64,000 nucleotides of DNA from an uncultured Chloroflexia bacterium (lineage in GTDB: Bacteria > Chloroflexota > Limnocylindria > Limnocylindrales > CSP1-4). This document shows, piece by piece, positions 21,796 through 62,027 of the stretch. The stretch lies in NCBI GenBank assembly GCA_963824735.1, contig CAWGQH010000014.1, forward strand, positions 74,853 to 138,852, written 5' to 3'. The notes beneath the pieces were generated by a model. That model was not told the DNA's origin. It saw nothing but the letters and a program-made list of their open reading frames with translations, and ran no database searches. The first letter of the stretch is position 1, and each line of letters begins with the position of its first letter. The translations under genes were made by a program, and so were the position numbers.

Positions 21796-21912
21796 TCCGA
21801 AATCGGACAGCGAGGGAAGTCAGTGTCGCCTGCCCGCGGATTCCGAAATCGGACTCCGAAATCGGCATGGTCGGCCGGAGCGGACTGACTTCGCCAACCG
21901 TCCGAAATCGGA
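21796..21912 (+). repeat. 117-nt quadripartite palindromic element, copy A
   Basis: Cores TCCGAAATCGGA at 21796, 21842 and 21901, and TCCGAAATCGGC at 21855 (spacing 46/13/46). Spacer pairing GAAGTCAGT 21816-21824 / ACTGACTTC 21884-21892. Confidence 0.85.
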
Positions 21913-21940
21913 CGCGGCGAGCCCACCAGCCCAGGCTCGA

Positions 21941-21969
21941 TTGACGCTCCAGCCTGGCGCCCGTAGACT
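21941..21969 (+). promoter_or_regulatory. candidate sigma-70-type promoter of the Rrf2-sufCS operon (near-leaderless)
   Basis: TTGACG 21941-21946, 17-nt spacer, TAGACT 21964-21969. ATG 21983 is only 13 nt downstream of the -10 box. Confidence 0.3.
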
Positions 21970-21982
21970 CAATCCCGACGAA

Positions 21983-22510
21983 ATGACTCGGAATTCCACG
22001 CTCCTCCCCACGCATCGGCCTGCCTTCCACGGAAGCGGCGCCCTCGCCTTCTCGACCAAGGGCGAGTACGGCGTCCGGCTCATGGTCCAGCTCGGCCGGC
22101 ACTACGGCAGCGGCCCGGCGTCGCTCGCCGAGATCGCCGCCGAAGAGGACCTCCCGCGGGCCTATCTCGAGCAGCTCGTGACGAGCCTCCGGGATGCCGG
22201 GCTCGTAGTCAGCACGCGCGGTGCGCGTGGCGGCTACGAATTGTCGCGACCACCGATCGAGATCGGGATGGGCCAGGTCCTGCGCGCCCTCGAGGGCCCG
22301 ATCGCGCCGATGTTCTGCGCATCGGACGACCCCGAGCACGCCCTGATCTGCGATCGCTCGTCGCGCTGCACGGTGAACCTGCTCTGGGTCCGTGTCCGCG
22401 ACGCAGTGACGAACGCGGTCGATTCGATGACCCTGGCCGATCTCGTGCCGCTCCCCGGCACGCCGGCCGTGACGACCCCCGCACTGACTGGAGCCGTGAC
22501 CCCCTCGTGA
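21983..22510 (+). CDS. Rrf2 family transcriptional regulator with a three-Cys putative Fe-S site
   Basis: FSTKGEYGVRLMVQL...LPRAYLEQLVTSLRDAGLVVSTRGARGGYEL wHTH. Cys cluster FCASDDPEHALICDRSSRC. Start uncertain (ATG 21983 or TTG 21941). Confidence 0.85.
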   Translation: MTRNSTLLPTHRPAFHGSGALAFSTKGEYGVRLMVQLGRHYGSGPASLAEIAAEEDLPRAYLEQLVTSLRDAGLVVSTRGARGGYELSRPPIEIGMGQVLRALEGPIAPMFCASDDPEHALICDRSSRCTVNLLWVRVRDAVTNAVDSMTLADLVPLPGTPAVTTPALTGAVTPS

Positions 22511-23403
22511 CCGAACAAGAACTCGTCATCCGCGGCCTGCGCGTCGCGCCAGTCGGCGACCCCACCAATGAGATCCTGCAGGGCATCGACCTCGCCGTCG
22601 GCAAGGGCCAGGTCCACGCGATCATGGGCCCGAACGGTTCGGGCAAGACGACCCTCGCCTACGCATTGATGGGTCACCCCGCCTACAAGGTGACCGGCGG
22701 CGAGATCTCGTTCAAGGGCCGCGACGTCCTCGCGCTGTCACCCGACAAGCGGTCGCGCCTCGGGCTCTTCCTCGCCTTCCAGTACCCGACCGCGATCCCC
22801 GGCCTGAGCGTCGCGTCGTTCATCCGTTCGGCGCTCAACGCCAAGCTCCAGGGCGTCGACAAGACGACCGACGTCGACCCGACCGACCCGATGCGTGGCG
22901 GCATCTCGATGCGCGACTTCCGCACGAAGATGCGCGAGAAGATGGCCCTCCTGCGCATGGACGAGGGCTTCGCCAGCCGCTACGTCAACGAGGGCTTCTC
23001 GGGCGGTGAGAAGAAGCGCCTCGAGATGCTCCAGCTGGCCATGCTCGAACCCGAGATCGCGATCCTCGACGAGACCGATTCGGGCCTCGACATCGACGCC
23101 CTGCGGATCGTCGCCGAGGGCGTCAACGCGATGCTCAGTCCAGACATCGGCGTGCTCCTGATCACGCACTACCAGCGGCTGCTCAACTACATCACGCCCG
23201 ACGTCGTCCACGTCCTCGCCCAGGGCCGGATCGTGAAGAGCGGCGGCAAGGAGCTGGCGCTCGAGCTCGAGGAGTTCGGCTACGGGCCGATCCTGCGCGA
23301 GGCCGGCCTGTCCATCGACGCGCCGGACGAGGCGCTTCACGTGCCGCAGTCCCCCGACGAGGAGCCGGTCGAAGTGGGCGGCCCGGCCGGCGGCCGCGGA
23401 TGA
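22507..23403 (+). CDS. sufC: Fe-S cluster assembly ATPase SufC (with ~40-aa C-terminal extension)
   Basis: GPNGSGKTT Walker A, FSGGEKKRLEMLQL signature, LDETDSGLD Walker B. Confidence 0.95.
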   Translation: MTEQELVIRGLRVAPVGDPTNEILQGIDLAVGKGQVHAIMGPNGSGKTTLAYALMGHPAYKVTGGEISFKGRDVLALSPDKRSRLGLFLAFQYPTAIPGLSVASFIRSALNAKLQGVDKTTDVDPTDPMRGGISMRDFRTKMREKMALLRMDEGFASRYVNEGFSGGEKKRLEMLQLAMLEPEIAILDETDSGLDIDALRIVAEGVNAMLSPDIGVLLITHYQRLLNYITPDVVHVLAQGRIVKSGGKELALELEEFGYGPILREAGLSIDAPDEALHVPQSPDEEPVEVGGPAGGRG

Positions 23404-24653
23404 CGCTGACCTCGGAGCCGGCGAAGGCGATCGACCCGCAGGTGCTGCGGGCCGACTTCCCGATCCTGCGCACGACGGTCCACGGCAAGCCGCTGATCTA
23501 CCTCGACTCGGCGTCGACGAGCCAGAAGCCGCAGGTCGTCATCGACGCCGTCGACGAGTTCTACCGCGAGTACAACGCGAACGTGCATCGCGGGATCTAC
23601 GAGATCGGCGAGCGCTCGACCGCCGCCTACGAGAAAGCGCGCGCGCAGATCGCCCGGTTCATCGGCGCGTCGGACGCGCACGAGGTCGTCTTCACGCGCA
23701 ACGCCACCGAGGCGATCAACCTCGTGGCCTATTCATGGGGCCGCAAGTCGATCGGCCGCGGCGACGTGATCGTGCTCACCGAGATGGAGCACCACGCGAA
23801 CCTCGTTCCGTGGCAGCTCCTCGTCCAGGAGAAGGACGGCGATCTCGAGTTCATCCCGATCACCGACGACGGCGTGCTGCGCCTCGACGTGTTCGAGGTG
23901 CTGCTCAGGCTCAAGCCGAAGCTCGTCGCGTTCACCCATGTCAGCAACACGCTCGGCACGATCAACCCGGTCGAGGAGCTGACGCGGATGGCCCACGACG
24001 CCGGGGCGCTCGTCCTCATCGACGGGGCGCAGGCCGTCCCCCACGTGCCGGTGGACGTCGAGGCGATCGGGGCCGACTTCTACGCGTTCTCCGGCCACAA
24101 GATGCTTGCCCCGACCGGCTCGGGCGTCCTGTGGGCGCGCCGCGAGCTGCTCGAGTCGATGCCGCCGTTCCTGGCGGGCGGCGAGATGATCCGCGAGGTC
24201 CACCTCCGCCGGTCCGAATGGAACGACATTCCGTGGAAGTTCGAGGCGGGCACGCCGGACGTGGCCGCGGCCATCGGCCTGGGTGCTGCTGCGGACTATC
24301 TTCGCGGCCTCGGCATGGACTCGGTCCGCGAGCACGAGCGCGAGCTCGTTGGGTACGCGCTCGAGACGCTGGCCCGCGACGTGCCCGGCATCGAGCTGTA
24401 CGGTCCGCCCGCCGATCAGCGCGGCGGTGTCGTGCCGTTCAACCTGCCCGGGATCCATCCCCACGACGTGGCCCAGGTGCTCGACCGGTTCGGCATCGCT
24501 GTCCGTGCCGGACACCACTGCACGATGCCGCTCCACGAGCGGCTCGATCTCGCCGCCACGGCGCGCGCGAGCTTCAACGTGTACTCGACACGCGAGGACA
24601 TCGACGCGCTGACGAACGGACTCAAGGAAGTCCAGCGCGTCTTCGACGTCTAG
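23400..24653 (+). CDS. sufS: cysteine desulfurase SufS (group II)
   Basis: SGHKMLAPTGSGVLW (PLP Lys) and RAGHHCTMPL (active Cys). Start overlaps the sufC stop. Confidence 0.95.
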   Translation: MTLTSEPAKAIDPQVLRADFPILRTTVHGKPLIYLDSASTSQKPQVVIDAVDEFYREYNANVHRGIYEIGERSTAAYEKARAQIARFIGASDAHEVVFTRNATEAINLVAYSWGRKSIGRGDVIVLTEMEHHANLVPWQLLVQEKDGDLEFIPITDDGVLRLDVFEVLLRLKPKLVAFTHVSNTLGTINPVEELTRMAHDAGALVLIDGAQAVPHVPVDVEAIGADFYAFSGHKMLAPTGSGVLWARRELLESMPPFLAGGEMIREVHLRRSEWNDIPWKFEAGTPDVAAAIGLGAAADYLRGLGMDSVREHERELVGYALETLARDVPGIELYGPPADQRGGVVPFNLPGIHPHDVAQVLDRFGIAVRAGHHCTMPLHERLDLAATARASFNVYSTREDIDALTNGLKEVQRVFDV

Positions 24654-25606
24654 GTTCCGGCGAGCTGCTCCACGAGCGGCGCCAGCTGGGCGAGCTCGGG
24701 CTCGTCGTGCCAGCCGACGAGATACGAGTTGATGCCCCAGCGATCGCGCGAGCGGCGCAGCTTGTCGACCAGGCTCGGGATCGTGCCGATCATCGAGTAG
24801 GGCGACTCGATGATGTCGTCCGGTTCGATCTCCAGCCCCGTCGTCGCGCGATAGGCATCGGCGACGCGTTGGGCTGCCGCGCGGGCGTTCGGCGTGATCG
24901 AGATCGGCCCGACGAGCCGCAGCACGCTCAGGTCGAGCTGCTCGAACCGGGGCCCGGCCTCGTCGCGCACCCAGTCGACCCGCGTATCCATGCGCCGCGG
25001 CCACGCGTCGTGCAGTGACTCGCGGTCCTGGCGCAGATCGACCCCGACGATGTCGCCCTCGCGGGCGGCGATCCGGAGGACGCGTTCCTTCGTGCCGCCG
25101 ACAATGAACGGCGGGTGCGGTCGCTGGACGGGCTTCGGCTGGCCGTCCAGGTCGCTGATCGTGTAGTGGCGGCCCGCGAAGCTGAACGGCCCGTCGGCGA
25201 ACAGCCCGCGGAGGATGGCGATCGCCTCGGTCATCCGCTCGATGCGCACGCCGGGCGGGTCGAACTGCATGCCGATCGCCTTGTACTCGGGTTCGTTCCA
25301 GCCCGCCCCGATCCCGACGTCGAGCCGGCCGTCACTGATGACATCGAGCGTCGCGAGATCCTGGGCGACGACGGCTGGGTGGCGCAGGTCGTTGTTCAGC
25401 ACGAGCGGGCAGACGCGGAGTCGTTCGGTCGCGACCGCGGCGGCAGTAAGCATCGGGATCGCCGCAAGCTGCGGCTCCAGGTGGTCGTGGATGCAGAGAT
25501 GCGTGTAGCCGATGGATTCGACCGTGCGGGCATGCTCGACGAGCGTCGCCCCATCGACGACCTGGCGGAGTCCGGCGATCAGCTGGAACGGGCGTGGCAT
25601 GCGCAC
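24650..25606 (-). CDS. LLM class (luciferase-like) F420-dependent oxidoreductase
   Basis: 318 aa. ...LNNDLRHPAVVAQDLATLDVISDGRLDVGIGAGW... is typical of the LLM family. Confidence 0.85.
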   Translation of the reverse strand: MRMPRPFQLIAGLRQVVDGATLVEHARTVESIGYTHLCIHDHLEPQLAAIPMLTAAAVATERLRVCPLVLNNDLRHPAVVAQDLATLDVISDGRLDVGIGAGWNEPEYKAIGMQFDPPGVRIERMTEAIAILRGLFADGPFSFAGRHYTISDLDGQPKPVQRPHPPFIVGGTKERVLRIAAREGDIVGVDLRQDRESLHDAWPRRMDTRVDWVRDEAGPRFEQLDLSVLRLVGPISITPNARAAAQRVADAYRATTGLEIEPDDIIESPYSMIGTIPSLVDKLRRSRDRWGINSYLVGWHDEPELAQLAPLVEQLAGT

Positions 25607-25633
25607 ACGGTAGCCGGTTCGCGACTGCCGGTC

Positions 25634-26917
25634 CTAGCCCGGGACGAGACCCCGCCACGTGTCGAGCGCCCAGTGCCAGTCCTCGGCGTCGTCGAACGTG
25701 ATCCGCACGACGGCGCCCGAACCGCGGACGGCCATGAAGCCTTCGACGACGCCGATCTCGACGCCCGAGCTCGAGTCGGTCATCAGCCGGGCGCGGCCGA
25801 GGAGCGGACCGGCGCGATGCATGAGGGCCTTCGACCCGAGGTTGCCCGCGACCTGATCGAGGAAGTCCTGGGCGCCCATCGGACCCGATGGCGTTCCGGT
25901 CGCCGTCGCCGCCAGCGTGATCGTCCGTCCCGCCCCGCCGACCCACAGCTCGTCCTCGGTGCGGACCTCGGCGAAGGAACCCGGCACCTCGAGCACCCAG
26001 CCGCCGTGGGTAAGGACGACCGGGGCGCGCCGGTAGCCGATGAGGGTCGATGGCGCCAGCATGGTCTTGGCGCGGTCGATCATCTGCCCGGCCATGTGGT
26101 CGTACAGGCCGCGGACTCGAGCCAGCTCCCGCCAGGCATGCCACGGGTAGGGGAGGCCCGGTTCGAGCGGGAAGGCCTTGCTGAGCAGCCGGTGGACCTC
26201 GTCGATGAGCTCGGCCTCGCCCTGCACCGCGGGGGCGCGCCAGCGAACGTCGAGCCACATCAGGCACAGCGCCCGGTTCAACAGGTAGCGCCCGTCGGTC
26301 GCGTCCGCCCACCACGGGGTGACATCGACGGCCACGCGGGGATCCGCGATGGCCGCCTCGAGCCATGCGGCGTCGCGGGGACCAAGCGCCGTGGCAATCG
26401 CACCATCGAACGTGTAGCGGGTACCCACCGGCAGCCCGAGTTGCGGTGCGGGCCGACCGGCAGCGGCCGCCTTGTGGGCCCTGACCAGCCTTGGCCCGAG
26501 CCACGTCAGGTACGCCTGCTCGACCACGGGCCGCTCGCCGAACGTGACGTCGAGCGGGTCGGCACGCGACCACGCGATCGATTGCTCGAGCCCCAGGCGC
26601 TCGAGGACGCGGCCGACAAAGCGGTGGTAGCCCGGCCCGGCGGTGACGGTCTCGGCGACGACGTCGACGCGGCCGTTGTCCCACGCGAGCATGCGCAGGT
26701 CCGGCGCGGCGGGGTGGAGGGCGACGGTCAGCTGCGCCTGGTCATTGCCCGTGGGCCGCACGTGCGTCCGCCGCACGGCATCCGGATACTCGACCAGCAG
26801 CCATGCCTCGACATCCGCGAGCAGCTGCTCTCCCGAGGGCTGGCGCAGGATCAGCCCCCGACGAGAAGCCTGGCCCGTGGCGCGGGCAATGAGCTGACGA
26901 TCGAGTAGGGAAGCCAC
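25634..26917 (-). CDS. hypothetical protein (~428 aa), no recognised domain
   Basis: Long coding-like ORF. The listed ATG 27094 lies in an AT-richer stretch with poor third-position GC, so GTG 26917 is preferred. Start uncertain. Confidence 0.55.
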   Translation of the reverse strand: MASLLDRQLIARATGQASRRGLILRQPSGEQLLADVEAWLLVEYPDAVRRTHVRPTGNDQAQLTVALHPAAPDLRMLAWDNGRVDVVAETVTAGPGYHRFVGRVLERLGLEQSIAWSRADPLDVTFGERPVVEQAYLTWLGPRLVRAHKAAAAGRPAPQLGLPVGTRYTFDGAIATALGPRDAAWLEAAIADPRVAVDVTPWWADATDGRYLLNRALCLMWLDVRWRAPAVQGEAELIDEVHRLLSKAFPLEPGLPYPWHAWRELARVRGLYDHMAGQMIDRAKTMLAPSTLIGYRRAPVVLTHGGWVLEVPGSFAEVRTEDELWVGGAGRTITLAATATGTPSGPMGAQDFLDQVAGNLGSKALMHRAGPLLGRARLMTDSSSGVEIGVVEGFMAVRGSGAVVRITFDDAEDWHWALDTWRGLVPG

Positions 26918-27286
26918 CGGTCGGCCGACGATACCGGCGCACCGCCGAGCGCGGGCACGTCGCTTGGTACCGCGGGGGAGGCCCAGTGGTACCGGCTCGT
27001 CGAGGCCCAGGTTTCGGCCAAATATCAGCCGTGGTGATTGAAGGTCAAGAGTTTGGCCACAGAGCGAGGCTCGGAGTGGTCGCTTAGTGGCCAAATCAGC
27101 GCCAGAGCGAGTATCTGGCCGGTAACTGGGCGTGCTGGGTGACCAGACCTCTGACTTTCATTACGTGGGCGAAATTTGGCCAGGTTCTGGCGCCAGCGCG
27201 CGCTGGCCGCCGCGTTGCCGGCGGTCCCTCGCCATATCCGACCCCAGTAGTCGGAATTCAGGTGGCGCGCTACACTCAGCGGAGCC

Positions 27287-27679
27287 ATGGACGACCTGTA
27301 TCGCGACTACATCCTCGAGCACTACCGGCGGCCCCACAACTTCGGGGTCATCGACAATCCCGACGCGTCCTACGAGGGCGCCAACCCGCTGTGCGGCGAC
27401 CGGATCACGCTGATGCTCGGCGTGAAGGACGGGATCGTGGACCGCGTCGCGTTCACGGGCCGCGGCTGCGCGATCAGCCAGGCCAGCGCCTCGTTGCTGA
27501 CCGACGAGATCAAGGGCAAGCCGGTGGCCGAGGTGGCCGCGTTCGGTGCCGACGATCTGCTTGACCTGCTCGGGATCGAGATCAGCCCGGCCCGCCTGAA
27601 GTGCGCGATGCTCAGCCACGACAGCCTCCAGCACACGCTGACCGACCTCGGCGTGGCGGAGCAGCAGGCGACCGCATGA
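27287..27679 (+). CDS. sufU: SUF-type Fe-S scaffold/sulfur acceptor SufU (NifU N-terminal family)
   Basis: NPLCGD, GRGCAIS and LKCAML Cys motifs. 130 aa. Confidence 0.9.
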   Translation: MDDLYRDYILEHYRRPHNFGVIDNPDASYEGANPLCGDRITLMLGVKDGIVDRVAFTGRGCAISQASASLLTDEIKGKPVAEVAAFGADDLLDLLGIEISPARLKCAMLSHDSLQHTLTDLGVAEQQATA

Positions 27680-27826
27680 CCACCTGCCCGCCGACCCGGA
27701 TCGAGCGCCGCTGCAGGTGTAACCCGCCGGCCTGATCGCCGGCTCTCCCGGTCGCACCGCCGACCCCCTTTCGCCCTGGCGCCATCGAAACGCCAGCCCG
27801 TCGACCCGTTTGGAGTCCCCACCCAC

Positions 27827-29065
27827 ATGCCAAAGTCATACGGCGACCTCCTCCGCGAGGCCCGCGCGACGATCCGCGAAGTGACGCCCCAGGAAGTCGA
27901 AGCACTCCCCGGGGGCAGCGTCACGCTCGTCGACGTCCGCGAGGCCTCCGAGTGGGAGCAGGGCCACCTGCCCGGGGCCGTGCATATCAGCAAGAGCTAT
28001 GTCGAGCAGCAGATCGAGGCCGCCGTGCCCGATCGCGATTCCGAGGTGATCCTGTACTGCGCCGGCGGCGTCCGCTCGCTGTTCGCAGCCCAGACCCTCG
28101 AGCAGATGGGCTATACGAACGTCGCCTCGATGTCCGGCGGGTTCCAGCAGTGGAAGGGCGCCGGTCTGCCGTGGGAGGCGCCGACCGTCCTGACCGCCGA
28201 GCAGAAGCAGCGCTACAGCCGGCACCTGCTCATCCCCGAGGTCGGGGCCGACGGCCAGGCAAAGCTCCTCGACTCGAAGGTCCTGCTCATCGGCGCGGGC
28301 GGGCTCGGCTCGCCGGCGTCGCTGTACCTCGCGGCGGCAGGCGTCGGGACAATCGGCATCGTCGACTTCGACGTCGTCGATCTGTCGAACCTCCAGCGCC
28401 AGGTCGTGCATACCAGCGATCGGGTCGGGGAGCGCAAGGTCGAATCGGCGCGCAAGACGATCAACGCCCTGAACCCCGACGTGACCGTCGTGGCGCACGA
28501 GGAGATGCTCGTCGCCGAGAACGTCGAGCGGATCATCCACGGCTACGACGTGATCCTCGACGGGACCGACACGTTCGAGACGCGCTACATCCTCAACGAC
28601 GCTGCGGTTGCGGCCGGCATCCCGGTCGTTCACGCGTCGGTCTTCCGCTTCGAGGGCCAGCTCACGACGTTCATCCCGTACGAGGGGCCGTGCTATCGCT
28701 GCCTCTACCCGACGCCGCCCCCGCCGGAGCTCGCTCCGGGTTGCTCGGTGGCGGGCGTGCTCGGGGTCGTGCCCGGGATCATGGGCCTGCTCCAGGCCAA
28801 CGAGGTGCTCAAGGTTCTGCTCGGGCTCGGCGAGACGCTCGCCGGCCGGCTGCTCCTGTTCGACGCGCTCGAGTCAACGTTCACCGAACTGAAGCTCCGC
28901 CGCGACCCGAACTGCCCGGTCTGCTCGACCGAAGCCGTGGAGGCGCGCCGGCTCGGCCGGCCGCTCACGATGGCCGGCGCCGCGGACGCGCCGTTCCTGC
29001 TCGGTGGCTCGTTCACCGCGCTGCCAGCCGACGACGACTCGGTCCCTGCCAAGGTGGACGCGTGA
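27827..29065 (+). CDS. rhodanese + ThiF/MoeB E1-like adenylyltransferase (MoeZ-like, with rhodanese N-terminal)
   Basis: Residues ~1-110 are rhodanese (active loop YCAGGVRS). Then GAGGLGSP nucleotide loop, and CYRC ... CPVC zinc motifs of MoeB/ThiF. Confidence 0.9.
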   Translation: MPKSYGDLLREARATIREVTPQEVEALPGGSVTLVDVREASEWEQGHLPGAVHISKSYVEQQIEAAVPDRDSEVILYCAGGVRSLFAAQTLEQMGYTNVASMSGGFQQWKGAGLPWEAPTVLTAEQKQRYSRHLLIPEVGADGQAKLLDSKVLLIGAGGLGSPASLYLAAAGVGTIGIVDFDVVDLSNLQRQVVHTSDRVGERKVESARKTINALNPDVTVVAHEEMLVAENVERIIHGYDVILDGTDTFETRYILNDAAVAAGIPVVHASVFRFEGQLTTFIPYEGPCYRCLYPTPPPPELAPGCSVAGVLGVVPGIMGLLQANEVLKVLLGLGETLAGRLLLFDALESTFTELKLRRDPNCPVCSTEAVEARRLGRPLTMAGAADAPFLLGGSFTALPADDDSVPAKVDA

Positions 29066-29334
29066 GCACGGTCTTCATCCCGACCGTGCTCCGCCCGAAC
29101 GTGGGTGGCGCCAAGCGGCTCGACCTCGCCGGCGACACGATCCGTGGCGTCGTCGACGAGCTGGTGATGCGCCATCCCGCCATCAAGCAGCAGCTGCTCA
29201 CCGACCAGGGCGATCTCAACCGGTTCGTCAACGTGTACGTGAACGGCCAGGACGTCCGGTATCTCCAGGGCCTCGACACGCCGGTCACGCCGTCCGACGA
29301 AGTGCGGCTGCTCCCGGCGATGGCCGGCGGATGA
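29062..29334 (+). CDS. cysO: MoaD/ThiS/CysO family sulfur carrier protein (C-terminal GG)
   Basis: 90 aa ending ...LLPAMAGG. GTG 29062 overlaps the E1 stop (GTGA). Followed by cysM with an ATGA overlap. Confidence 0.85.
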   Translation: MSTVFIPTVLRPNVGGAKRLDLAGDTIRGVVDELVMRHPAIKQQLLTDQGDLNRFVNVYVNGQDVRYLQGLDTPVTPSDEVRLLPAMAGG

Positions 29335-30365
29335 GGGTGGCCCTTCCGAAGGAACTCCGGCGCGAGGCGCTGCACCCGGCGGCGCACGACCATTTCCACG
29401 CGCACGAGAGCCTGGCCCGCCACGGCGGCCGCTATGCCGACGTGCTCGAGGCGATCGGGCACACGCCACTCGTCGAGATCCCGCGCATGTCGCCCAACCC
29501 GGACGTGCGCATCCTCGCGAAGCTCGAGATGGTGAACCCGACCGGCTCGGTCAAGGATCGCGTCGCGAAATACCTGATCGAGGACCTCGAGGACCGCGGC
29601 CTCCTGCGCGAGGACTCGATCATCCTCGAGCCGACGTCGGGCAACACCGGCATCGCGCTGGCGATGATCGGCCGGCGCAAGGGCTATCGCGTGGCGCTCG
29701 TCATGCCCGACAACGTGACGAACGAGCGCCGCCAGATGGCCGCACTGTTCGGCGCCGAGGTCATCGACTCGCCGGGCCACCTCGGGTCCAACGGCGCGAT
29801 CGACCTCGCCAAGCACCTCGTCGCGAAGGACGAGCGGTTCGTGATGCCGTACCAGTACGGCAATCCCGCCAACACCCGGGCGCACTACGAGACGACCGGG
29901 CCCGAGGTCCTCGCCGACTGCCCGGAGATCGACGTGTTCGTCGCCGGAATGGGGACGTCGGGCACCCTGATGGGCGTGTCGCGCTACCTGCGTGAGCGGA
30001 AGCCGGGCGTGCGAGTCGTGGCCGCCGAGCCACTCCCCGGGGAGCAGGTGCAGGGACTGCGCTCGCTCGAGGAAGGCTTCATCCCGGAGATCTTCGAGCC
30101 CGCCATGCTCGATGCGAAGTACCTCGTCTCGAACCGCGACTCGATCGCGGCGCTGCGCGACCTCGTCTTCAAGGAGGGGATCTTCGGCGGCCCGTCGTGC
30201 GGGGCGGTGCTGGTGGCCGCGGCCCGCGAGGCGATGACGATGACGTCCGGCACGGTGGTCGCGCTGCTCCCGGACGGTGGCTGGAAGTACCTGTCGGCGG
30301 GCACGTTCTCGGCGAACCTCGACGAGATGGACGAGGCGCTCGAGGGCGGCGTCAACTGGTGGTGA
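29331..30365 (+). CDS. cysM: cysteine synthase B-type (CysM, presumably CysO-thiocarboxylate dependent)
   Basis: NPTGSVKDR (PLP Lys) and TSGNTG loop. About 30-aa N-terminal extension relative to typical CysM, so the start is somewhat uncertain. Confidence 0.9.
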   Translation: MRVALPKELRREALHPAAHDHFHAHESLARHGGRYADVLEAIGHTPLVEIPRMSPNPDVRILAKLEMVNPTGSVKDRVAKYLIEDLEDRGLLREDSIILEPTSGNTGIALAMIGRRKGYRVALVMPDNVTNERRQMAALFGAEVIDSPGHLGSNGAIDLAKHLVAKDERFVMPYQYGNPANTRAHYETTGPEVLADCPEIDVFVAGMGTSGTLMGVSRYLRERKPGVRVVAAEPLPGEQVQGLRSLEEGFIPEIFEPAMLDAKYLVSNRDSIAALRDLVFKEGIFGGPSCGAVLVAAAREAMTMTSGTVVALLPDGGWKYLSAGTFSANLDEMDEALEGGVNWW

Positions 30366-30388
30366 GGGGCGGCGGTCGCCGCCGTCGT

Positions 30389-30505
30389 TCCGAAATCGGA
30401 CGCTTGGCAAGATCACTTCCATCCAGCGCGCGATTCCGAAATCGGATTCCGAAATCGGAAGGCAGGTGGTGGGGGGTGTCTCGTCGCCGCCCATCCGATC
30501 TCGGA
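30389..30505 (+). repeat. 117-nt quadripartite palindromic element, copy B
   Basis: Cores TCCGAAATCGGA at 30389, 30435 and 30448, and TCCGATCTCGGA at 30494 (spacing 46/13/46). Fills the cysM-mec gap with 23 nt on either side. Confidence 0.85.
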
Positions 30506-30528
30506 AGCGCCACGCCTGGCGGCGGGCG

Positions 30529-30954
30529 ATGACCGAACACCCAGGACCCGAATCGGTCGAGCTGCCGGCGGCCATCCGTACCGCGCTGATCGACCACGCC
30601 AGGGCCGAATACCCGAACGAGATGTGCGGCGTCATCGTCGGTGACGGGGACGCGGCAACCGGCGGCCGCGCACTCCGTTGGGAGCCCGCCCGCAACGCCG
30701 AGGCGTCGCCCATGCGCTACGTCGTGCACCCAGAGGACCTGCTCCGCCTGACGATCGAGACCGACGACGCCGACGAGGTGTTCTGGGCGATCGCCCATTC
30801 GCACGTTCGCTCGCCTGCCGTGCCCTCACCGACGGATATCGGCGCGGCGCAGTACCCGGACGCGCTGTACATCCTGGTCTCGTTGAGCGAGGACGACGTC
30901 CGCGCATGGCGGATCGTCGACGGGACGAGCCACGAGGTGGCGATCACGGACTGA
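30529..30954 (+). CDS. mec: JAMM/MPN+ metalloprotease Mec (CysO-cysteine hydrolase type)
   Basis: EMCGVIVG and AHSHVRSPAVPSPTD (HxH...S..D JAMM motif). 141 aa. Confidence 0.85.
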   Translation: MTEHPGPESVELPAAIRTALIDHARAEYPNEMCGVIVGDGDAATGGRALRWEPARNAEASPMRYVVHPEDLLRLTIETDDADEVFWAIAHSHVRSPAVPSPTDIGAAQYPDALYILVSLSEDDVRAWRIVDGTSHEVAITD

Positions 30955-31016
30955 GCGCTGCGGCCCGACGCGGAGCACCAGCGTTGCGTATCCTCCGCCG
31001 CGAGGAGGGCACACGG

Positions 31017-31484
31017 ATGGACGACAACATCTACCGGGCCATCGTCTACACGCACATCCTGGCCGCCATGGCGTGGGTCGGCGGGGCGTTCTTCATCCAG
31101 CTGCTGGGTATCAGGACGGCGCGGTCGACGGATCCGCAGGATCTGCCCAAGCTCGGACGGCAGATCGAGTGGTTCGGCATGCGCTATTTCCTGCCGGTTT
31201 CGATCGTCACGTTCGCGGCGGGCGTCATCCTGGTCAGCCAGCGCTGGCAGTTCAGCCAGCTGTGGATCTCGCTGGCGATGCTGTTCTGGCTGGTGTCGGT
31301 GATCATCGGCGCGCTGTACATCGGGCCGCGCTCGAAGAAGGTCGCCGAGATGTTCGAAGCGCAGGGACCGACGTCCTCGGAGGCACGCGCCGCGTCGGCA
31401 CGCCTGTTCATGGTGTCGCGGATCGACCTCGTCTTGTTCTTCGTGATCGTCGGGCTCATGGTGTGGAAGCCGGGCGGCGGCTGA
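31017..31484 (+). CDS. membrane protein (4 TM, DUF2269-like, tentative)
   Basis: ATG 31017 after GAGGAGGG. Hydrophobic helices THILAAMAWVGGAFFIQLL and others. Confidence 0.7.
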   Translation: MDDNIYRAIVYTHILAAMAWVGGAFFIQLLGIRTARSTDPQDLPKLGRQIEWFGMRYFLPVSIVTFAAGVILVSQRWQFSQLWISLAMLFWLVSVIIGALYIGPRSKKVAEMFEAQGPTSSEARAASARLFMVSRIDLVLFFVIVGLMVWKPGGG

Positions 31485-31506
31485 TACCTGACTCCGCGGC
31501 GTCCCG

Positions 31507-31917
31507 GTGAGGGACCGCCGCGGGACCGTCGCCGCCCTCGTCGGCGGCATCGCCGCGCTGGTCATCGGCATCGTCGCCGCCTCGAACGAGGCGTTCCTCG
31601 AGGCGATCGTGTCGCCACCCGCGTTCGTCCGCGCGGTGCTCATCGCGCTGAGCGTCGTCGGTGGCGTCGCCCTCCTGGCTGCCGCGGCCGCGGGGATCTC
31701 CGCGGCAGGCGATTCCGACAACCCTGAGCGCGACCTGCCGGGCATGATCCGCGGCGTCCGCCTGATCTTCCTCGCGGTCGCCGCGTTCGCGGCCGCGGCC
31801 GGCTGGGCCCTCGCGCACCCGTTGCCGCTCGTCGTCGCGCTCGTCATCGCCGCGATCGACGTCATCGAGACGTCGTTCCTGCTGCTGGTCGTCACGGTCC
31901 GCGGCGACCACGCTTGA
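31507..31917 (+). CDS. membrane protein (4 TM)
   Basis: GTG 31507. Ala/Val/Leu-rich helices with near-100 percent GC at third positions. Confidence 0.6.
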   Translation: MRDRRGTVAALVGGIAALVIGIVAASNEAFLEAIVSPPAFVRAVLIALSVVGGVALLAAAAAGISAAGDSDNPERDLPGMIRGVRLIFLAVAAFAAAAGWALAHPLPLVVALVIAAIDVIETSFLLLVVTVRGDHA

Positions 31918-31960
31918 CGGCCACATAGCGGCGGCCTACGGTCGGGTCACGCCGGAGGGG

Positions 31961-33487
31961 ATGGAGGTTCTCGATGACCCGCTCCAGCTGCGCTTCGAGC
32001 ACTGCTCGCATTCCTGGCCGGCGTCGCTTTCGTCGGCGCTGTCGCCGTTGTCGACCAGTCATTCCAGGACCGGATGAGCGACGTCCCCGCAGGCCGCCCG
32101 TGGTGGACCGCCGGCGGCGGAACAGGACGAGGGCGAGGACGAGAACGAGGAGAAGGAAGAGCAGGCCGAGAAGCTCGAGCGGAGACTCGAGGCGCTCGAG
32201 GCGGCCGAACAACGAGGCGAGGTCGGACAGAGCCGGCCCGCGGCTGCCGGGCCTCCGTCAGCGGGTTGGGCCGGCGAGACGCCCTTCGACCCGACGGCCG
32301 ACGACTGGGAGCCTGCGATCGCGGCAGATCCGTCGGCGCCGTGGGTCTATGCGCTCGTCACCCGCTACGGCGCGGGCAAGCCGTGCAAGGGCAACTGCCC
32401 GACGCCGTATACCGCCCTGCGGATCAGCAGCGACGGCGGAGCGACGTGGGGACCGTCGAAGCCCCTGTGTGCCTGCAAGGGCGGTGGCCAGTTCGACCCG
32501 ATCATCGAGGTCGTCCCGCGGACCGGCAGCGTCTACGCGCTGTACATGAACGGCTTCAACGTGGTCTTCGTGAAGTCGACCGATCACGGCGCGACGTGGT
32601 CCGCTCCGGTCAAGACGTACGGCAACGTCAGCTGGAACGACAAGCCGGTCATCGCCGTCAGCGATGACGGGCGGGATGTCTACGCGACGTTCAACGGGCC
32701 GACCGGCGGCGATCCGTGGCTGGCGCAGTCGCACGACTTCGGGGCGACGTGGACGCAGACGAAGCTCGTGAACAGCGACCGGTACTACTTTGCGTTCGAC
32801 GCGGACGTCGCGCCCGACGGCACGGCGTATCTCTCGCAGTCGAGCCTCCTGTATGGCGGCGGTGGCAACAAGGGGACTCCGCCAAGCGGGACGATCGACC
32901 ACCACGTCTTCGTGTCAACAGACCGCGGAGCGACGTGGACCGACCGGAACGTGGCGCAGGTCCAACCAGGACTGGCCTGCACGGCGGCGGGCTGCTCCCC
33001 CGACTTCTACCTCGGCCACAGCGCCCTGTCGGCCGACGCCGGCGGCGCCCTCTCCCTGCTGTACGACGGAGCGTCCACTGCCGGCGGGCAGCAAACCATT
33101 GTCGCCCGGCGCTCCACCGACCGGGGCGCGACCTGGACCGCGCCGGTGACGCTCTCGAAGGCGGGCGAGATGGCGACGAGCCCGGCGGTCGAATCGCGGG
33201 GCAGCGGCGACGTGCGGGCGTGGTGGATGGAGACGAACGGCGGCAACGTCGACGCATGGAACGTCTGGTATCGCCGTTCGACCGACGGGGGCGTGACGTG
33301 GGCGTCGCCGGTGAAGCTGTCCGACGCCACGGCAGGTGCCGCGTACAAGACCCCGGCCGGCTTCCTCGAGATCTACGGTGACTACGGGGAGGTGGCGATC
33401 AACAGCGCGGGCAAGACCGTCGCGATCTGGGGCGAGGGCGCCAGCTTTGACGGTCCCGGGGGCGCCTGGTTCAACCGGGAGCAGTAG
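31961..33487 (+). pseudogene. BNR/Asp-box (sialidase-like beta-propeller) protein with a disrupted 5' region (in-frame TGA 32075-32077)
   Basis: Six SxDxGxTW Asp-boxes. The first (32426-32449) lies upstream of the first in-frame start codon (ATG 32546). The frame is open and coding-like back to 32078 with no ATG/GTG/TTG. TGA 32075 is in frame with ATG 31961. Confidence 0.6.
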
Positions 33488-34391
33488 CCGGTTCGCCGAG
33501 CGCGGCCCGCACCTGGTCCCAGGTCGGCAGCCCGGCCTGTGCGCCCGGGACGAGCGTCGACAGGGCGGCCGCGACATTGGCCGCGCGAAGCGCCTCGGGC
33601 ACGCTCGCGTTGGCCGCGCGGAGCAGCGCGAAGCATGCGACGAACGCGTCGCCGGCCCCGGTCGTGTCAACCGGCGTGACCGGGTAGGCCGGCGCACGGA
33701 TCACCTCGCCGGACCGGTCGACTGCCAGTGAGCCGCCCTCGCCGAGCGTCACCACCACGAGGTTCGGGCCTCGCTGGAGAAGGGCATGCGCCGCACGCTC
33801 GGGATGGTTGGGCACGCCCGAGAGCAGCGAAGCTTCGACCTCATTGACGACGAGGACATCGGCCAAGCGGAGCAGGTCGCCGGGGATCGTACGGGTGGGG
33901 GCCGCGTTGAGGACGCGCAGGGTCCGTCCGCTCGTGGCGACCCGGAACGCCTCGTCGACCGCCTCGAGTGGCACCTCGAGCTGGGCGACGAGCAGGTCCG
34001 CGGCTTCGATGCGCGGTGCCGCGGCGCGGACGATCGCCGGCGTGCACGCGCCGTTGGCGCCCGGCGTCACGACGATCGTGTTCTCGCCGCGCGCGTCGAG
34101 GGTGATCGCGGCGAGCCCGGTCGGTCGGTCCGGATCCACGTGGAGACCGGCCAGGTCGATGCCGGCCGATGCGACGGCGCCCGCCGCGGCCCGCCCATCG
34201 TCGTCGTTCCCCACCGCGCCGATCAACGACGTCGCGGCCCCGAGGCGCGCCAGCGCGACCGCCTGGTTGGCGCCCTTGCCGCCGATCGCCCGGCTCGTGC
34301 CGCTCCCGAGCACCGTCTCGCCGCGTGCCGGCAGCTGGTCGACGTGGAGGAACAGGTCGACGTTGACGCTGCCGACGACGAATGCACGCAT
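33471..34391 (-). CDS. rbsK: ribokinase
   Basis: ATG 34391. GGKGANQAVA and DTTGAGDAF motifs. It is the C-terminal part of the listed 753-aa composite ORF. Confidence 0.9.
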   Translation of the reverse strand: MRAFVVGSVNVDLFLHVDQLPARGETVLGSGTSRAIGGKGANQAVALARLGAATSLIGAVGNDDDGRAAAGAVASAGIDLAGLHVDPDRPTGLAAITLDARGENTIVVTPGANGACTPAIVRAAAPRIEAADLLVAQLEVPLEAVDEAFRVATSGRTLRVLNAAPTRTIPGDLLRLADVLVVNEVEASLLSGVPNHPERAAHALLQRGPNLVVVTLGEGGSLAVDRSGEVIRAPAYPVTPVDTTGAGDAFVACFALLRAANASVPEALRAANVAAALSTLVPGAQAGLPTWDQVRAALGEPATAPG

Positions 34392-61910: not shown

Positions 61911-62027
61911 TCCGATTTCGTACGCCCATGCCGGAACCACCCCCTCCCACCTCGCTTCCGATTTCGGACTCCGATTTCGGATGGCATCGTGGAGGGGGTG
62001 TGCCTTCCACTAGCTTCCGATTTCGGA
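61911..62027 (-). repeat. 117-nt quadripartite palindromic element, copy C (inverted orientation)
   Basis: Plus-strand cores TCCGATTTCGTA at 61911 and TCCGATTTCGGA at 61957, 61970 and 62016 (spacing 46/13/46). Spacer pairing CACCCCCTCC 61938-61947 / GGAGGGGGTG 61991-62000. Confidence 0.85.

Follow-up and report, generated by a model that had tools for sequence, protein, structure and literature searches.

The cysM-mec gap of a Limnocylindrales bacterium holds one copy of a dispersed repeat built on four short palindromes

The non-coding stretch that parts cysM from mec in an uncultured Limnocylindrales bacterium is filled for most of its length by an element, copy B, that belongs to a repeat family of about 118 bp dispersed in this order; it has probably passed down vertically since its entry, its palindromic sites probably bind a symmetric protein, and whatever it does to cysM and mec is likely incidental. 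The cysM-mec gap would then be a lineage-specific insertion of generic repeat DNA rather than a conserved regulatory feature of CysO-dependent cysteine synthesis, and should therefore not be annotated as a cis-regulator. The family belongs to an abundant, essentially uncultured class of soil bacteria and combines four short palindromes frozen at fixed spacing, neutral drift between them and deep orthologous persistence. With this unusual pattern the family offers a clean test of whether REP-like repeats persist to the benefit of the host or to their own.

The gap lies in a window of 64,000 nucleotides, the whole stretch of DNA that was analysed, and the genes and flanking features on which the argument depends are these.

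27827-29065, plus strand: E1-type adenylyltransferase with an N-terminal rhodanese domain, MoeB/MoeZ-like (NCBIfam PRK08762, E 8e-169)
29062-29334, plus strand: cysO-like sulfur carrier of the MoaD/ThiS fold with a C-terminal Gly-Gly (PF02597 on orthologues)
29331-30365, plus strand: cysM, CysO-thiocarboxylate-dependent cysteine synthase (by family search)
30368-30383, plus strand: GC-rich hairpin GGCGGCG-GT-CGCCGCC in the 3' flank of cysM
30506-30528, plus strand: 23-nt right flank before the mec ATG, restricted to element-bearing alleles and variable among them
30529-30954, plus strand: mec, JAB/MPN metalloprotease, desampylase-like (JAB/Prok-JAB; PF14464, E 3e-20), with the start MTEHPGP common to orthologous Mec proteins

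The E1 stop and the cysO start overlap as GTGA (29062-29065), cysO and cysM overlap as ATGA (29331-29334), and the cysM stop (30363-30365) and mec ATG (30529) leave a gap of 163 nt (30366-30528), in which copy B takes up 117 nt (30389-30505) with 23 nt remaining on either side. An earlier note on this DNA had described this chaining, the gap and the way the element fills it, and the coordinates are confirmed, as are its identifications of the four genes, with which the family searches agree. It had also placed the element within a cysM-mec transcript; the two genes are co-directional, and together with copy B they probably form a single transcript. The gene order in the window is E1-cysO-cysM-mec, and that of Mycobacterium tuberculosis is mec-cysO-cysM; the rhodanese domain of the E1 protein is N-terminal to its ThiF domain, and that of mycobacterial MoeZ is at the C-terminus.

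The window holds three copies of the element, and the coordinates of all of them are given without strand.

21796-21912: copy A, between an FAD oxidase gene (minus strand) and the Rrf2-sufC operon (plus strand), with an orthologous copy in locus L097
30389-30505: copy B, with S1 at 30389-30400, S2 at 30435-30446, S3 at 30448-30459 and S4 at 30494-30505, and spacers at 30401-30434 (left) and 30460-30493 (right)
61911-62027: copy C, between an HxlR-type regulator gene and a membrane-protein gene, with orthologous copies in L111, L075 and L101

Each copy is composed of four 12-nt palindromes TCCGA-NN-TCGGA (S1 to S4) whose centre is mostly WW, the duplex of the site being written TCCGAWWTCGGA / TCCGAAATCGGA. 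The distances are 46-47 nt from S1 to S2, 13 nt from S2 to S3 and 46-47 nt from S3 to S4, giving a whole unit of about 118 bp. Both arms share the half-element consensus TCCGAwwTCGrA-CGCCGCCGGAAGTCACTTCCC in inverted orientation, and in the favoured explanation they descend from an inverted repeat. Position-by-position composition has a sharp conservation edge at the outer border of S1 and of S4; beyond the 12-mer nothing is conserved except a T at position -3 in 55% of copies and CG after the site. The 13-mer TTCCGAAATCGGA, with up to 2 mismatches, has 15 matches in the window where 1.0 is expected, all of them in clusters A, B and C. A family profile based on 88 copies from elsewhere recovers these three copies and nothing else in the window, and its scores for the two strands of each copy are nearly equal. 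For copy B the two strands score 81.2 and 80.1 bits (E 2e-24 and 5e-24), which leaves the "sense orientation" that had been ascribed to it without meaning.

The family extends well beyond this genome. A pattern scan of metagenome-assembled genomes matched seven stretches from Chloroflexota, mostly Limnocylindrales, together with one contig binned as Verrucomicrobiia, and a pattern scan of metagenomes matched at least 120 contigs, mostly from soil samples; together the soil metagenomes and the Chloroflexota/Limnocylindrales genomes provide at least 105 non-redundant complete four-site elements. Distances between neighbouring sites, among the matches listed, peak at 13 nt (151 cases) and at 46-47 nt (133 cases). 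A motif search of the literature gave no match, and a search for repeats of Limnocylindria or REPs of Chloroflexi returned only the GTAG REPs of Thermomicrobium. At the gathering thresholds Rfam has no match in the window, the best sub-threshold match being the Acido-1 RNA (RF01686) with 20.5 bits against the 50 required. The family thus appears to be undescribed and REP/REPIN-like. A phage origin was rejected, as viral contigs gave no family match. The contig binned as Verrucomicrobiia (L005, DATLVO010000148.1) has near-identical sequence in the soil contigs L066 and L103, and its binning could reflect either mis-binning or horizontal spread beyond Chloroflexota.

The history of the cysM-mec junction can be read from the close CysM homologues, which are labelled 'Candidatus Limnocylindrales' and 'Chloroflexi bacterium'. 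The element is carried at this junction by L003 (CysM identity 97%), L021 (96%), L133 (95%), L125 (93%), L045 (89%) and L015 (88%), and it is missing from L130, L128, L129, L131, L132, L134, L135, L136 and L138. An unbiased sample is provided by the 12 junctions reached through CysM proteins alone, where the full element is present in L133, a solo S site in L137 and neither of the two in the other 10. The cysM tree places L128, L129 and L130, which have no element, in the midst of carriers, with a bootstrap of 0.995 for the inner clade. In more distant relatives cysM and mec overlap or lie 7 nt apart; the element thus parts genes that overlap or almost touch in relatives. Empty alleles are without the element and also without the 23-nt right flank (30506-30528), which is probably old intergenic DNA. 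The GC hairpin at 30368-30383 is also found in the element-less L128, L129 and L130 and is therefore native to the junction; it is present where the earlier note had placed it, but it lies outside the repeat.

Two of the empty junctions retain traces of how they arose. That of L130, cgTTCCGAATGACC / cgccgTTCCGAATGACC, corresponds to an L021-like allele deleted between two CCGA(A) repeats, with endpoints at the CCGA(A) in S1 and at the gCCGAATG of the L021-like right flank, and that of L128 and L129, gtcgccgccgATG, corresponds to a window-like allele deleted at a CG microhomology. The element was thus probably lost by deletion at short microhomologies. L137 and L138 have an identical CysM protein and junctions that differ by 62 nt containing the solo S: L137 (1900-1955) has a single TCCGAAATCGGA in a 52-nt gap, and in L138 (2156-2165) the genes overlap. 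This looks like an element that collapsed to one site and was then lost completely. The simplest history for these alleles would start from a single old insertion, perhaps two, after which the element was inherited vertically and repeatedly lost or collapsed, and as judged from them the element is dispensable at the cysM-mec junction in close relatives. Its presence or absence among relatives with 95-98% identical CysM is the kind of variation that the earlier note had itself held against its regulatory proposal.

Other changes are seen at the same junction. In L132 (2005-2661; CysM 90% identical) a methyltransferase gene lies between cysM and mec and overlaps both, so that the junction is evolutionarily plastic. 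The mec homologue of L129 (7049-7500) aligns in two frames and its gene call has just 89 residues, and L128 has no mec gene call, yet its mec region gives an unbroken alignment with Mec; such oddities represent frameshifts or assembly errors in two element-less alleles. Insertion beside hairpins, an idea that arose from the GC hairpin next to copy B, was rejected, the flanks of elements folding at -8.3 and other intergenic sequence at -8.0 kcal/mol (p=0.24).

Gene contexts across the family, taken from a crude in-house GC3-based gene caller, are varied. Among the matches listed the elements are intergenic, in 44 co-directional, 15 convergent and 6 divergent contexts; the gene ends that face them are 3' ends in 86 cases and 5' ends in 54, and many copies lie a few tens of nucleotides past a stop codon. 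Clustering of the 168 proteins encoded beside the same matches gives 107 clusters whose functions are unrelated, and the elements therefore do not define a regulon. The sulfur/Fe-S regulon hinted at by copies A and B is ruled out by these varied flanking genes, and sites limited to the promoters of related genes, as would be expected of a regulon-specific operator, are not what is found, since the sites are mostly downstream of genes. Copies A and B do bracket a sulfur/Fe-S cluster (21796-33500) of Rrf2, sufC, an aminotransferase-type gene, NifU, E1, cysO, cysM and mec; the diversity of flanking genes across the family speaks for a coincidence. The orthologue of copy A in L097 also lies upstream of Rrf2, and the orthologues of copy C in L111, L075 and L101 lie between HxlR and the membrane protein, down to about 78% protein identity; in more distant orthologues of copy C the S sites are kept and the spacers are unrecognisable.

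How selection has acted on the element is best seen by comparing six orthologous cysM-mec junction copies with copy B as reference. Identity to copy B is 97.5-100% in the S arms and 53-82% in the spacers, and cysM third codon positions compared in the same way with the copy B locus are 68-85% identical; five of the six orthologues were found through a pattern demanding intact S2 and S3, so the conservation figures unaffected by this bias are those for S1 and S4 and for locus L133. Because spacer identity resembles that of synonymous sites, the spacers evolve approximately neutrally. The paralogues A, B and C of the window have spacers that are 47-60% identical, against 42% for shuffled sequence, and there has therefore been no recent copying in this genome. 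The lengths of left and right arms co-vary (r=0.70, permutation p<0.0002). In these comparisons constraint is limited to the S arms and to arm lengths and geometry. A and T make up 89% of the NN centre, against a genomic G+C content of about 70%, and show no preferred orientation, AA occurring 127 times and TT 117 times, so that all constrained features are strand-symmetric. From strand-symmetric constraint a symmetric dimer reading duplex DNA is to be expected, and an RNA signal is not.

The explanation that we favour joins these observations as follows. The module would have entered the cysM-mec junction in the ancestor of a subclade and then been inherited vertically, with later loss, or collapse to a single S, in some lineages. 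Its S sites are putative duplex-DNA sites for a symmetric, dimeric, sequence-specific protein, which may be the enzyme that once spread the family, in a REPIN/RAYT-like or MITE-like manner, or a host DNA-binding protein. At this junction the element would uncouple two genes that abut or overlap in relatives and add a hairpin-prone, possibly protein-bound stretch to the mRNA and the operon, an effect that is likely incidental. Former mobility of the family is suggested by its dispersal and discrete ends. The strong conservation of S arms in old, static copies is unlike that of decaying selfish DNA and leans towards a host function. Whichever protein is concerned, the S site is a precise 12-bp bait for the partner.

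A tentative alternative, which we consider rather unlikely, takes this host function further and sees the four-site units as domesticated: chromosomal binding platforms selected for a host protein of Limnocylindrales, acting, in a high-GC lineage without U-tract terminators, as insulators or protein-dependent roadblock terminators where genes end, or as nucleoid or topology sites. The bound protein would, at cysM-mec, dampen read-through into mec. The retention of S arms while spacers and synonymous sites drift to 53-85%, the persistence of copies at orthologous sites down to about 78% protein identity, the lack of recently duplicated paralogues and the strand symmetry of the constraints would all fit, as would the excess of 3' over 5' gene ends facing the elements and the lack of an intrinsic terminator signal in the gap. 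Against it, the copy is dispensable at cysM-mec in close relatives, partial, collapsed and tandem-expanded copies resemble unstable repeat DNA, no candidate protein was found, and the 3'-end bias is also expected from selection against promoter insertions. A non-systematic look over about 0.7 Mb of loci noticed no binding-protein, transposase or RAYT gene beside the elements, and no parent insertion sequence with matching ends was seen in the loci.

That the element acts as RNA, a generic hairpin of the REP/ERIC type that either stabilises the mRNA upstream of it or serves as a substrate of RNase III or RNase E, with a shifted cysM:mec ratio as a side effect, seems improbable. Its placement would suit such a role, copy B lying between co-directional genes that are probably co-transcribed, many copies following a stop codon by a few tens of nucleotides, and REPs of other bacteria being placed alike (PMC3733652). 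Element copies also fold better than shuffled sequence, with z of -3 to -6, but the details of folding speak for something other than a selected structure. RNAalifold on seven orthologues gives a covariation term of 0.04, with spacer pairs often broken. In chimera folding an element's own right arm is just 1.6 kcal/mol better than swapped-in arms (better in 51 of 91, p=0.048). The NN centres of S1 and S4, and of S2 and S3, are complementary no more often than by chance, and in a hand count of pairs the covariation at one variable arm position vanishes within the subfamily that carries it. Spacer identity is 0.61 within elements and 0.59 between them, a comparison of low power in which shuffled sequence gives 0.54. 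The sense strand has no folding advantage: relative to the direction of transcription, folding favours sense in 30 cases and antisense in 26 (p=0.78), and for copy B the minus strand reaches -86.1 and the plus strand -83.9 kcal/mol. The two G-U pairs that had been taken as a mark of the plus-strand RNA do occur in its fold; folding of the minus strand is, however, no less favourable, and orthologues carry C at one of the positions. Arms under selection for structure would co-vary; these stay invariant, a sign that sequence rather than structure is read out. With no Rfam match, no covariation and no sense-strand bias a structured RNA was rejected.

The proposal of the earlier note, that the element is a purpose-built processing, attenuation or operator signal decoupling the dosage of Mec from that of CysM, is hardly credible: the element does fill exactly the one non-overlapping junction of the operon, is kept in six relatives with CysM 88-97% identical and has a counterpart of related theme in copy A upstream of the Rrf2-suf operon, but the same module sits beside about 100 unrelated gene families, is absent from 10 of the 12 CysM-reached junctions (one has it and one a solo S), is dispensed with by relatives whose CysM is identical or 98% identical, and shows neither strand specificity nor covariation. 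From 30200 to 30700 there are no terminator-like or promoter-like (sigma-70-like) sites, nor the GC-rich stem with a T run that marks an intrinsic terminator or attenuator. A role specific to the cysteine operon is thus not supported. What survives of the suggested internal operator is its more general part, a protein-binding site, which agrees with the most marked feature of the data, the four invariant 12-bp palindromes.

The closest known systems are the REP doublets, or REPINs, that are mobilised by RAYT transposases (PMC3116915, PMC3733652). Like them, the present family has short conserved palindromes in inverted arrangement around a less conserved spacer, in a whole unit of about 110-120 nt that is capable of forming a hairpin. 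The elements lie outside genes, usually downstream of one and seldom between two that diverge; they show no target-site duplication, persist vertically at orthologous sites for long periods, and when deleted can leave behind some bases of the conserved end, of which the L130 remnant is an example. The differences are as clear: a REPIN has two REPs where this family has four identical 12-bp palindromes at base and tip, the GTAG/CGTC tag is absent, paralogues within the genome are highly diverged (spacers 47-60% identical), and the compensatory hairpin changes of REPINs are not found. The search for target-site duplication, as direct repeats of 3-9 nt at offsets 0-3, returned none; the sole flank-repeat signal is the dinucleotide AT, itself palindromic, which 26 of 91 copies have at offset 2.

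Other small repeats may be regarded as functional analogues with other differences. The ERIC or IRU sequences of enterobacteria are imperfect palindromes of about 127 bp that lie in transcribed intergenic regions, including those within operons, may be present at a junction in one genome and absent from it in a relative, and can alter the relative expression of flanking genes, with effects that depend on RNA and orientation. The present elements resemble them in size, imperfect palindromy, transcribed intergenic or in-operon location and presence or absence at a junction, but have no sequence relation to them; ERIC is conserved along its whole length, whereas this family conserves just four short sites with their spacing and is strand-symmetric. 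With MITEs such as the Correia elements of Neisseria the family shares small, non-coding, dispersed and intergenic copies with inverted ends and discrete boundaries, and with Correia elements also co-transcription with neighbouring genes; it differs in lacking target-site duplication, in repeating the end motif internally and in having old, diverged copies with no recent bursts. The BIMEs of Escherichia coli are REP mosaics bound by IHF and gyrase, and are similar in having several palindromic units at fixed spacing at gene ends and, if the present reading holds, in offering a platform of duplex DNA to proteins; here the units are of one type and there is no IHF-like motif. Several conserved 12-bp palindromes per module with an A/T-rich, orientation-insensitive centre also recall a multi-site operator for a dimeric protein, but the present sites lie beside unrelated genes, mostly at gene 3' ends instead of promoters, and on a discrete unit of repeat-like origin. 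IS1535 carries four directly repeated 9-bp motifs (PMC6188088). An IS607-type end, with helically phased 9-bp direct repeats and a serine transposase, was ruled out for this family, which has 12-bp palindromes at 46/13/46.

A transposase carried between paired elements was likewise rejected: in three loci two elements lie about 5.3-5.5 kb apart with housekeeping genes inside (CO-dehydrogenase-type subunits), and the 490 nt between two elements of L100 encode a small protein that is not transposase-like.

Variant forms of the element are scattered through the loci. Half elements of S2-S3-spacer-S4 occur in L036 (300-420), L037 (1215-1330) and L049 (3579-3660), and in the first two of these loci the upstream gene ends with its stop codon directly against S2; the genes beside truncated elements are ordinary. 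Parts of elements are amplified in tandem in L014 (422-668 and 5715-5930), L067 (2739-2954) and L083 (1620-1900), with site-plus-spacer units of 64-nt and 48-nt period and, in L083, a long array of the 13-nt unit TCCGAGGTCGGAT, and some elements have three or four central sites. The half elements, solo S sites and tandem expansions look like ordinary repeat DNA. A last observation concerns the gene next to copy A. In the listed Rrf2 reading frame (21941-22510) the Pfam match does not begin until residue 37, so the true start is probably about 100 nt further downstream than listed. This puts copy A at a distance of over 100 nt upstream of that start; the conserved ctcgaTTGACG that follows copy A may be a -35 box rather than a start codon.
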